Translations under genes and position numbers: made by a program
Notes under the pieces: generated by a model
Told to the model about the DNA's origin: nothing
What the model saw: the letters and a program-made list of their open reading frames with translations, nothing else
The model's database searches: none
Assembly: GCA_027065775.1 (NCBI GenBank)
Contig: JAMONN010000062.1
Location: 1 to 30,493, forward strand
Source of the DNA: Flavobacteriaceae bacterium
GTDB lineage: Bacteria > Bacteroidota > Bacteroidia > Flavobacteriales > Flavobacteriaceae
Reading direction: 5' to 3'
Length of the DNA: 30,493 nucleotides
In this document: in pieces, positions 8,369-9,796 of the stretch
How positions within the stretch are numbered: the stretch's first letter is position 1
How the letters are laid out: every line of letters begins with the position of its first letter

Positions 8369-9796
8369 ATGAATACAGAAACAAAAATCAACGGTCATAC
8401 TTTAATCAATTTAGGGTTTATTCCTGGTAATTGGTTTACAGAAGCGATTAATCATATTAATGAAAACGCTTTAAAAGATGAAAAAATGCTTAACTATTTA
8501 GAGCAATTCAAATTACCACCAATGTTGCCTTTGCAAGAAAATGTTGCTTTTGCAATAAACATTAAAGCAGAAAATGAATTGGAAGAAAAAAATGTAGCAG
8601 ATGTTATCGCAACCATGAAAGAAGTCATGAAAACACCAACAGTTGTTGGCGGATCTATTATGCCAGACGCTTGTCCAACAGGTAGAATTGGTGTAATTCC
8701 TGTTGGTGGCGTTGTAGTTACAAAAAATGCGATTCACCCAGGAATGCATTCCGCAGATATTTGCTGTTCGGTAATGTTAACCGATTTTGGTAAAATAGAA
8801 CCAAAGTTAATTATGGATGCTGCACATAAAGTAACACATTTTGGTCCTGGTGGAAGAGAAAGAGATTCTCAATTTAAATTTCCACCAGAGTTATTAGCAC
8901 AATTTGAAAACACGATGATGTTAAAAGATAAAAACATGATCTCTGTAGCAAGAAAACATCTTGGTACTCAAGGTGATGGAAACCATTTTTTATTTGTTGG
9001 TGTTTCTAAAAAAACAGGAAACACTATGATGATTACGCATCATGGTTCACGTGGTGTTGGTGCGATGTTATTTAAAAGAGGAATGAAAATCGCTGAGCGT
9101 TTTAGATTGCAATTATCTAAAGATACTTTAAAGCAAAATGCATGGATTCCTTACAATACTTTCGAAGGAAAAGAATATTGGAAAGCCTTGCAAGTCATCA
9201 GAAATTGGACAAAACAAAACCATATTTGTATTCACGATGCAACTGCCAAAAAAGTTGGCGCAACGATTGAAAATAGGTTTTGGAACGAACATAATTTCGT
9301 TTTTAAGGATGGCGATTTATTTTATCATGCAAAAGGTGCAACGCCTTTAAACTCGAAATTTATGCCAGATATTACCGGTCCAAGATTGATTCCGTTAAAT
9401 ATGGCAGAACCTATTTTAATTGTGGAAGGCGAATCTACCGAAACAAATTTAGGTTTTGCTCCTCATGGAGCAGGAAGAAATTTAAGTAGAACACAACATA
9501 AAAAGAACAAAGCTGATAAAACAATTGAAGCAGTTTTTGAAGAAGAAACACAAGGTTTAGATGTGCGCTTTTTTTCTAATGAAATCGATATTTCGGAATT
9601 GCCTTCTGCTTATAAAAATGCCGAAAACGTTAGAAATCAAATGGATGAATTCGGTTTAGGTACTGTAATTGACGAAGTAATGCCTTATGGTTCAATTATG
9701 GCAGGCGATTGTCAGAAAAATGCACCTTGGAAAGTTAGAGCGAGAAAACGTTATGAAGCAAAGATGTTGGCTTTGGAAAATAAAAATGAAAAATAA
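8369..9796 (+). CDS. RtcB-superfamily RNA ligase, divergent clade
   Basis: RtcB signature blocks are present: [16 protein letters not shown] (Asp-x-x-Cys metal site), [10 protein letters not shown] (GNHF), [10 protein letters not shown] and APHGAGRNL (His nucleophile motif). The first ~100 aa do not resemble canonical RtcB. Confidence 0.7.

Follow-up and report, generated by a model that had tools for sequence, protein, structure and literature searches.

We analysed a 30,493-nt stretch of DNA from a Flavobacteriaceae bacterium (contig JAMONN010000062.1 of assembly GCA_027065775.1; hereafter "the window"), in which a first-pass annotation had singled out an open reading frame (ORF) at 8369-9796 as a divergent RtcB-superfamily ligase. 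The finding is real and the gene belongs to a distinct RtcB clade, within a kind of system that had already been predicted in the literature. We consider it probable that the gene encodes the catalytically competent ligase of a clade dedicated to RNA-repair systems built from a scaffold protein and a tRNA-mimicking RNA, and that here it belongs to a WYL-controlled regulon that would be induced by RNA damage and reseal RNA. Related loci are referred to below by our own L numbers.

The rtcB gene and its catalytic residues

8369-9796, forward strand: rtcB, ATG start, encoding a 475-aa RtcB-superfamily protein of a distinct clade, predicted 3'-phosphate/5'-OH ligase; signature residues MPDxC102, D130/C133, GNHF-x-F209, H224-H225-GSRG, H308, N344, H366 (nucleophile) and K416.

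A chance ORF is excluded, because three independent metagenome contigs carry a protein identical to that of the window and more than 6,900 database proteins match it. The ORF is a genuine gene for an RtcB-fold enzyme, whose ligase activity is predicted from sequence and modelled structure. The Pfam RtcB family (PF01139) aligns with amino acids (aa) 188-443 at 122.4 bits (cut-off 27; E = 3.8e-35) and weakly with aa 84-141, short of a full-length alignment. An AlphaFold model built with 30 homologues (predicted local distance difference test, pLDDT, 82; predicted template modelling score, pTM, 0.82) was matched by Foldseek to P. horikoshii and human RtcB with E-values of 8.6e-21 to 1e-18 and template modelling (TM) scores of 0.6-0.65 (0.63 at the lowest E-value).

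When the protein was aligned to the E. coli, P. horikoshii and human enzymes, every hallmark motif named at first pass was present and fell on catalytic residues, namely D130/C133 (HSADICC), N205-H206-F207 (GDGNHF), H224 (HHGSRG), H308 (NEHNF) and H366 (HGAGR). D130/C133 and H366 correspond to D75/C78 and H337 of E. coli RtcB, and the metal ligands and nucleophile together to D119/C122/H227/H259/H353/H428 of human RTCB, from whose structure the roles of these residues as metal ligands and histidine nucleophile are taken (PMC8668186). The nucleophile H366 and the five metal ligands (D130, C133, H206, H224 and H308) are invariant across the clade.

A distinct clade with a remodelled guanine pocket

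Comparison with hidden Markov models bears out the suggestion that the enzyme belongs to a clade of its own. It scores 84.4 bits against NF007153, the NCBIfam equivalog of E. coli-type RtcB (cut-off 407), and 55.1 bits against TIGR03073, the model of PrfH-coupled RtcB2 (cut-off 271.8), missing both cut-offs widely, and is 24% identical to E. coli RtcB. The best 120 of the more than 6,900 matches are 71-87% identical to the window protein and 456-514 aa long; the named ones, from Crocinitomicaceae, Fluviicola, Saprospiraceae, Cytophagales, Flammeovirgaceae and Dokdonia, are labelled "RtcB family protein". In an exhaustive search of 50%-identity cluster representatives, the clade comprised ∼178 representatives with E < 1e-30 and other RtcBs made up a further ∼2,400 weaker matches. 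The clade is mostly found in Bacteroidota, with some members in Pseudomonadota (Proteobacteria). A scan of genome contigs with one protein query gave only 7 loci.

The first-pass annotation had itself named the reading that would undo its proposal, an ordinary housekeeping RtcB with nothing special about it. This reading agrees with the public annotation ("RtcB family protein" or "tRNA-splicing ligase RtcB") and with a chromosomal housekeeping context. It is ruled out by the two equivalog scores, the alignment to E. coli RtcB with its 24% identity and the changed pocket residues described next; the partial Pfam alignment and the extra termini also speak against it, and we give it next to no credence.

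Three signature motifs differ from the canonical enzyme. MPDxH has become MPDxC, with cysteine in 118 of 120 close homologues and in 94 of the 101 distant representatives that have the motif. The glutamate of GNHF-x-E is replaced by an aromatic residue (GNHF-x-F/Y) in all 119 close homologues scored and in 84 of 107 distant representatives, and HxGSRG reads HHGSRG, with HHGSR in 120 of 120 close homologues and 100 of 111 distant representatives. The residues that read the guanine base in human RTCB are Glu230, Ser409 and Lys504 (PMC8668186); their counterparts in the window protein are Phe209, Asn344 and Lys416, so that the lysine alone is kept. Since guanine readers are replaced throughout the clade, its nucleotide specificity comes into question; the changed pocket does not exclude the use of guanosine triphosphate (GTP).

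These substitutions raise the alternative that the protein uses a nucleotide other than GTP, or modifies or caps RNA ends in the manner of M. xanthus RtcB3, rather than acting as a sealing ligase. The two human residues that hydrogen-bond guanine, Glu230 and Ser409 (PMC8668186), are Phe/Tyr and Asn in the clade, and the change from MPDxH to MPDxC points in the same direction. However, the guanine-reading lysine (K416) is invariant, as are the Asn-His of GNHF, the nucleophile and every metal ligand; strong purifying selection (>70% identity across orders) together with an intact catalytic centre fits a working ligase, and the genomic partners are those typical of RNA-repair ligases. We regard altered chemistry as an unlikely explanation.

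Accessory module and tail of the ligase

8369-8506, forward strand: N-terminal accessory module of RtcB, aa 1-46, three helices in the full-length model.
9704-9796, forward strand: clade-specific C-terminal extension, aa 446-475 plus the stop codon, GD..NAPWK followed by a Lys/Arg-rich predicted helix.

The first ∼100 aa of the protein had been described as non-canonical, with the advice that their structure be predicted. A foreign segment is indeed present and conserved in the clade, but it measures ∼46 aa: aa 47-83 show a weak alignment to the strand and helix at the N-terminus of RtcBs of the Thermus/archaeal type, and the alignment to NF007153 begins at residue 70. In the full-length model, aa 1-46 form a three-helix module whose helices have pLDDT values of ∼87-91. 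Modelled alone from the single sequence, aa 1-60 reached a pLDDT of 57, too poor for a fold search. The segment carries the motif I-[TN]-G-x-x-L-I-x-x-G-[FY]-x-P-G-x-W-F, which is kept down to 35-40% overall identity.

The N-terminus of the window protein weakly resembles the C-terminal end of PF13735, domain 2 of tRNA nucleotidyltransferases (E = 0.011-0.018), as do 13 of 38 diverse clade members (best E = 7.4e-5, all under the 27-bit cut-off). A profile of clade N-termini aligned in one clean stretch with residues 377-422 of the T. maritima CCA-adding enzyme (3H37; E = 4.6e-4), but a shorter, 29-position profile matched that enzyme only at E = 0.19. We discarded the top matches of the longer profile, designed helical repeat proteins, as spurious multi-stretch alignments. 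Homology of the module to the C-terminal tail of class II CCA-adding enzymes is likely but unproven on these profile matches. A similar module (I-K-G-K-E-L-x-x-I-G-Y) is present in the PrfH-linked RtcB of L138, and the module is therefore not exclusive to the clade. The C-terminal extension is conserved in the clade and absent in E. coli-type enzymes.

A divergent WYL regulator and two near-identical promoter cassettes

6563-8143, reverse strand: 526-aa HTH-WYL-WCX regulator, WYL at aa 155-222, WCX at aa 255-328, with a C-terminal PhyH-type remnant.
8236-8252, no strand assigned: operator 1, GCGCAAAAAGATTGCGT (general form RCGCA-N7-TGCGY), kept in every WYL/rtcB intergenic region examined.
8264-8271, forward strand: -7 promoter box of rtcB, AATATTTG, 12 nt 3' of the operator, its position kept at all genuine sites.
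8299-8329, forward strand: hairpin of the rtcB 5' leader, CCCTGAGG...CATCAGGG, also found, with compensatory changes, in the second cassette and in some relatives.
11945-11961, no strand assigned: operator 2, ACGCAAAAAGATTGCGT, followed by a -7 box (11972-11979), in a second copy of the promoter/leader cassette of rtcB.
12007-12036, forward strand: leader hairpin 2, CTCTGATG...CATCAGAG, a homologue of the hairpin in the rtcB leader, showing a compensatory change from C-G to U-A.

The divergent neighbour of rtcB is a WYL regulator rather than RtcR, as had been noticed at first pass: the protein matches the Pfam WYL domain at 35 bits (cut-off 21.8) and WCX at 31.9 bits (cut-off 23.9). Its helix-turn-helix is seen only weakly (HTH_11, E = 0.14), but conservation in the family is highest at the N-terminus. 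Neither rtcA nor prfH (RF-1/PrfH) is encoded anywhere in the window, in agreement with the earlier remark that these partners are lacking, and the window likewise encodes no sigma-54 activator and no RtcR. WYL homologues with 41-54% identity lie divergently upstream of clade rtcB in L001-L004, L007-L009, L137 and L139; in L134 and L135 a homologue lies near clade rtcB with other genes between.

The operator is a 5-7-5 palindrome whose commonest form is ACGCAAAAAGATTGCGC. The window holds two exact copies of the 17-mer, compared with 0.25 expected by chance even with two mismatches allowed, and the ∼110 nt surrounding the two copies are homologous. Bacteroidetes-type promoters have a -7 box with the consensus AAnnTTTG. 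Because the -7 box of rtcB begins ∼12 nt downstream of the operator, the TTG of the right half-site stands at the expected -33 position, and the right half of operator 1 overlaps this -33 TTG of the rtcB promoter.

A GC-rich leader hairpin follows soon after the predicted transcription start. It takes the form CTCCGYYGA-N8-TCRRCGGAG in L001, L003, L004 and L007, is also found in L002 and L135, and is kept in structure and not in sequence. Relatives with short leaders lack it, and none is present in L009, L069, L080 and L087. Stabiliser, attenuator and processing site are possible roles.

We scanned metagenomes for the exact operator pattern and obtained 120 matches, which together with the loci already found gave 36 sites with promoter context. 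Clade rtcB follows 9 of these sites, canonical RtcB follows 4, and ∼9 lead into ORF-free arrays of tRNA-like or Y-RNA-like elements, the remainder standing before small unknown proteins. The canonical-type RtcBs behind the operator, from other Bacteroidota, show 22-24% identity and the motifs MPDVH, GNHFIE and HSGSRN. Approximately 84 of the 120 matches had no promoter context and were rejected as chance or unrelated occurrences, such as a repeated coding context, CAGCTTTAGAAT...GAACTGAAT.

The solved structures nearest to the regulator are 7u02, 7tzv and 8tp8 ("WYL domain-containing protein" or "DeoR-family transcriptional regulator"; weak matches, E = 0.04-0.15), which we take to be Caulobacter DriD, a sensor of single-stranded DNA (ssDNA). 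This resemblance favours a DNA-damage response in which the WYL domain would sense ssDNA, like PafBC and DriD, and RtcB would heal DNA breaks with 3'-phosphate ends, an idea helped by the fact that RtcB enzymes can join DNA 3'-phosphate ends. Yet the other putative members of the regulon are RNA-centred (YrlA-like RNAs, tRNA-like arrays, Ro60, RlaP and a PrfH-RtcB pair), and a proteobacterial member of the clade is under RtcR, which responds to damaged tRNA. We regard a DNA-damage response as very unlikely.

The regulators also vary at their C-termini. In the window, the last ∼190 aa (6563-7120) form a degenerate PhyH-type dioxygenase domain from which ∼35 aa, including the HxD iron site, are deleted. 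The regulators of L002 and L004 end in a PhyH-type 2-oxoglutarate-Fe(II) (2OG-Fe(II)) dioxygenase domain (Pfam E = 3.6e-15 and 2.6e-11) with WHQD and the distal histidine intact; that of L001 aligns with this domain and keeps WHQD, its record stopping just before the gene end. The domain is wholly missing from the regulators of L003, L007, L008 and L009. In the literature covered, which did not include the 2016 paper of Burroughs and Aravind, we came across no account of a dioxygenase fused to a WYL regulator.

A gene for a 126-aa protein (6179-6559, reverse strand) starts 3 nt past the end of the WYL gene and may be co-transcribed with it. The protein has a weak DUF2007 match (E = 6.7e-4, under the cut-off) and a hydrophobic C-terminus. 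Its link to the WYL gene may be incidental, since the L134 homologue adjoins tsaB instead.

A tRNA-mimic RNA and a Band-7 gene behind the second operator

12112-12420, forward strand: structured non-coding RNA (ncRNA) in which two tRNA-like domains of YrlA type, circularly permuted and in tandem, come after a bulged helix (GGUA[G]AAAA / UUUU-UACC).
∼12229-12295, forward strand: unit 1 of the ncRNA, a tRNA-like domain.
12285-12396, forward strand: unit 2 of the ncRNA, end-to-end match to Rfam YrlA (RF02553), 35.4 bits, E = 7e-6 in a 911-nt search.
12737-13834, forward strand: 365-aa Band-7/SPFH protein (Band_7, PF01145, 110 bits), downstream of the ncRNA.

Operator 2, and behind it the ncRNA, in a stretch free of ORFs, and the Band-7 gene, lie 3.6 kb downstream; these operator-linked partners had been missed at first pass. 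We aligned the ncRNA of the window with those of three close relatives (L134, L135 and L136) and folded the alignment with RNAalifold, which returned two tandem domains with the YrlA topology of closing stem, T-arm, acceptor-like hairpin and D-arm. Among only 4 sequences, 13 base pairs show compensatory changes. Topology and covariation fit YrlA, and we describe the RNA as YrlA-like, not as a certified member of RF02553. A long-range CAAGG/CCTTG pairing was rejected because it is not conserved in L135; the GGUA/UACC pairing fits instead and shows a compensatory change to GAUA/UAUC.

The same elements are arranged more compactly in close relatives. L135, whose RtcB is 85% identical to that of the window, has a WYL gene, a single operator, the leader hairpin, the ncRNA, the Band-7 gene and rtcB in this order, and L136 (82% identity) has ncRNA, Band-7 and rtcB on a contig that starts inside the ncRNA and so has no upstream sequence. 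L134 is ordered like the window (rtcB, tRNA cluster, operator, ncRNA, Band-7). Judging by this gene order, operator, ncRNA, Band-7 and rtcB appear to form one operon in close relatives. In the window this unit is present in split form, with the promoter cassette duplicated and a ParE toxin-antitoxin pair and a tRNA cluster inserted between the halves.

The ParE pair, a 96-aa ParE-family toxin (PF05016) with an overlapping 84-aa putative antitoxin (9830-10355, reverse strand), lies directly 3' of rtcB in convergent orientation. It is absent at that position in L134-L136 and therefore looks like an insertion that helped to split the repair unit. Between rtcB and operator 2 there are also 7 tRNA genes (Ser, Ser, Tyr, Pro, Glu, Leu and His; 11093-11906), besides an eighth, weak and tRNA-like, at 11837-11906; its equivalent in L004 is Arg-ACG according to ARAGORN. 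Several tRNAs of the cluster score poorly (29-46 bits). The "tRNA-Leu(UAG)" of the window is 74 nt long, without the long variable arm expected of a bacterial tRNA-Leu, and the same odd tRNA stands beside the operator in L004 and L134.

Related loci and the wider regulon

Beyond the close relatives, a pair of RlaP nucleotidyltransferase genes lies 3' of rtcB in L001, L003, L004, L087 and L139. L010, from Dokdonia, has three operators, ahead of the RlaP operon and ahead of rtcB. Directly upstream of its rtcB, after two RlaP genes, a gene at 5113-5931 has a weak match to Apea-like HEPN (E = 0.0019), a similarity that may point to an RNase as a partner in certain versions of the system. The region 1-12328 of L138 is a repair island in which a WYL gene and Ro60 (TROVE) diverge, with a tRNA and a YrlA-like RNA after Ro60; also encoded are a bona fide PrfH (TIGR03072, 248 bits) and an RtcB belonging to it, a clade RtcB with its own operator and two RlaP genes.

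L006 (2054-7422) holds a Rhizobiales member of the clade with 51% identity. Here the genes are ordered RtcR (CARF/sigma-54), Ro60, a YrlA RNA (66.9 bits), a YrlA-like RNA (39.9 bits) and rtcB. Because this clade member is under RtcR, WYL control is lineage-specific and not a property of the clade. The control logic proposed as distinct at first pass therefore holds in part: the WYL gene is conserved beside clade rtcB in many loci, but the Rhizobiales member has RtcR, and the WYL operator is also found at canonical RtcBs. Taken as a whole, gene context identifies the clade as the putative ligase of repair modules that combine Ro60 or Band-7 with a tRNA mimic, with WYL (Bacteroidota) and RtcR (Proteobacteria) as apparently interchangeable regulators of these modules.

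Some candidate genes in these loci were dismissed. A 538-aa reverse-strand ORF of L006 (3882-5498) is spurious, being antisense to the real Ro60 gene (3897-5456, forward strand) in a locus of 60% GC, and two further L006 ORFs of 116 aa (5646-5996) and 99 aa (7428-7727) are spurious and have no Pfam match. A large ORF 3' of the L004 ncRNA array is not TROVE according to Pfam.

Operator-driven RNAs take other shapes as well. tRNA-shaped genes stand behind the operator in L114 (364-774, reverse strand) and L054 (2960-3078). Those of L114 are three in tandem, score 45-54 bits with the Rfam tRNA model and have proper acceptor, D and T arms; in each, 58-62 nt of inserted sequence stand in place of the anticodon loop, a length below that usual for group I introns. 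In these stretches of L114 and L054, tRNA and YrlA were the only Rfam families to match.

A repeated RNA module consists of 5'-(A)GGUCAA, a 7-nt stem, UUACUUC, an insert of 23-69 nt (hairpin/T-arm), the complementary 7-nt stem and (A/G)AUUA(C/U)C-3'. It occurs in up to 5 tandem copies in L004 (11651-12215), L054, L077, L102, L125, L026, L055 and L114, and is not present in the window. The 7-nt stems differ wholly between copies, with perfect pairing in 8 of the 13 copies with an identified 3' partner and 6 of 7 pairs in the other 5. GGU(C)AA and UU-ACC of the module would make a helix with a bulged C that recalls the GGUCCGA helix by which Y RNAs bind Ro60. Among the loci the 5' motif occurs 23 times, each time on the operator strand of an operator-driven ncRNA locus. 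Apart from tRNA, YrlA and a weak tmRNA fragment, no Rfam family matched these loci.

Ligase and tRNA-like RNAs stand under one operator, and in L135 apparently in one operon, which raises the alternative of a maturation enzyme: RtcB would ligate or circularise pieces of the co-regulated permuted tRNA mimics or, in relatives, of the insert-bearing tRNA-like genes, in a process closer to splicing than to repair. The three tandem tRNA-shaped genes of L114, with large inserts in the anticodon arm behind an operator, would suit such a role, as would the processing of M. smegmatis YrlA by RNase P and the function of RtcB as the tRNA-splicing ligase of archaea and animals (PMC8668186). On the other hand, no splicing endonuclease was noticed in the gene-listed neighbourhoods, where no dedicated search for one was made; many clade members (L002, L008, L009 and L137) are without a tRNA-like RNA within 6-7 kb; and the inserts bear a conserved Y-RNA-like bulged stem, which suggests protein binding over removal. 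We judge a maturation role to be improbable.

A bolder combination, in which the ligase acts on the co-regulated tRNA-shaped RNAs in an inducible, protein-catalysed bacterial splicing or circularisation and the remodelled pocket (Glu to Phe, Ser to Asn, His to Cys) means a changed cofactor or reaction, appears distinctly unlikely to us.

Proposed mechanism

The repair system put forward at the outset would work as follows. RtcB would join RNA 3'-phosphate or 2',3'-cyclic-phosphate ends to 5'-OH ends through a histidine-nucleoside monophosphate (NMP) intermediate on H366, and the clade would provide the ligase of accessory repair systems comprising a scaffold (Band-7/SPFH or Ro60), a tRNA-mimicking RNA and often RlaP. 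The regulator would bind the palindrome over the -33 element of two near-identical cassettes, one for rtcB and one for the double YrlA-like tRNA mimic and Band-7. Its WYL domain would detect a damage product of RNA, for instance tRNA fragments or ends with a cyclic phosphate, in a role like that of the CARF domain of RtcR in Proteobacteria. The regulon would be switched on after the damage product is sensed, with the regulator acting as either an activator or a repressor. RtcB would then reseal broken tRNA or other RNAs of translation. The CCA-tail-like N-terminal module and the basic C-terminal helix may add binding of RNA, in particular of tRNA-shaped RNA, and the tRNA mimic with Band-7 possibly helps in recruiting or holding substrates of tRNA shape. 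A substrate of the tRNA type is plausible.

Several points weigh against this proposal. Two of the three guanine-reading side chains are replaced clade-wide (Glu to Phe209, F/Y in the clade; Ser to Asn344), and the conserved histidine of MPDxH has given way to cysteine; from these residues, the cofactor or chemistry of the clade could differ. The ligase function of the clade is likewise a prediction, drawn from its sequences and a predicted structure. The likeness of the N-terminal module to CCA-enzyme tails is sub-threshold, and the YrlA match of 35.4 bits lies below the Rfam gathering score of 69. The window contains no Ro60 (TROVE) gene and, by tblastn, no RlaP homologue. We infer from its conservation alone that the RCGCA-N7-TGCGY palindrome is bound by the WYL regulator. 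Those WYL regulators that have been characterised either answer to ssDNA (PafBC, DriD) or govern phage defence, and by this analogy the signal could be DNA damage.

Comparison with known systems

The system of RtcB, Band-7 and tRNA-like RNA is known as a comparative-genomics prediction of 2016, and its arrangement is not new. [quoted passage not shown] In later work, Burroughs and Aravind named RlaP as a repair-associated nucleotidyltransferase, and the addition of one or two nucleotides by RlaP to the 3' ends of damaged RNA (tRNA) has been demonstrated since then. They also suggested that WYL and CARF transcription factors may sense cyclic-ended RNAs and regulate RNA repair (PMC9503650).

To the extent that the 2016 system is described in that preprint, the window agrees with it in having RtcB near a Band-7 gene and a tRNA-mimicking ncRNA (the variant with YrlA adjacent to Band-7), and the relatives agree in that Ro60 and YrlA replace Band-7 and RlaP genes are attached. 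It differs in that the unit falls into two parts, the operator/leader cassette is present twice and the ParE pair and tRNA cluster are inserted, and in being without RlaP, which is frequent but not obligatory in the system. In the literature covered, of which the 2016 paper was not a part, we found no description of the operator and regulon, the pocket substitutions or the CCA-tail-like module, and no paper directly linking WYL, RtcB and Bacteroidetes.

With the RtcR-RtcB-RtcA system of E. coli and Salmonella (rsr-yrlBA-rtcBA) the window shares the superfamily, the catalytic residues, a divergent ligand-sensing regulator and Y-like tRNA mimics. In contrast to that system, it has a one-component WYL regulator in place of RtcA, sigma-54 and CARF components, and its RtcB is 24% identical, carries extra N- and C-terminal modules and has the Glu and Ser of the guanine pocket replaced.

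The PrfH-coupled RtcB2 of the 16S rRNA repair module is closer in the one example at hand: the RtcB beside prfH in L138 is nearer to the clade than are E. coli-type RtcBs (BLAST 109-146 vs 45-90 bits). The window is nevertheless without prfH, and the PrfH-linked enzyme of L138 keeps the canonical MPDAH, GNHFVE and HSGSRG. Since both types co-occur in L138, clade RtcB and PrfH-linked RtcB are not redundant.

The regulator resembles PafBC, DriD, BrxR and CapW in its HTH-WYL-WCX architecture, in the palindromic operator beside the regulated promoter and in the divergent gene arrangement. It differs from them in its putative targets, which are RNA-repair genes and ncRNAs, and in that some orthologues carry a PhyH-type 2OG-Fe(II) domain.

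Significance

What is known of the substrates and signals of bacterial RtcB enzymes comes largely from E. coli and Salmonella. The clade described here is abundant in Bacteroidota and strongly conserved, thousands of homologues being >70% identical across orders, yet to our knowledge it is unstudied. It offers several handles: a defined operator, a two-promoter regulon, a WYL regulator that apparently takes over the function of RtcR, a tRNA mimic that is co-regulated and has a Band-7 partner, and active-site substitutions that predict altered nucleotide recognition. At stake are the sensing of RNA damage by WYL domains and the part that Band-7/Ro60 and tRNA-mimic cofactors play in RNA ligation, two questions that date from the 2016 prediction.

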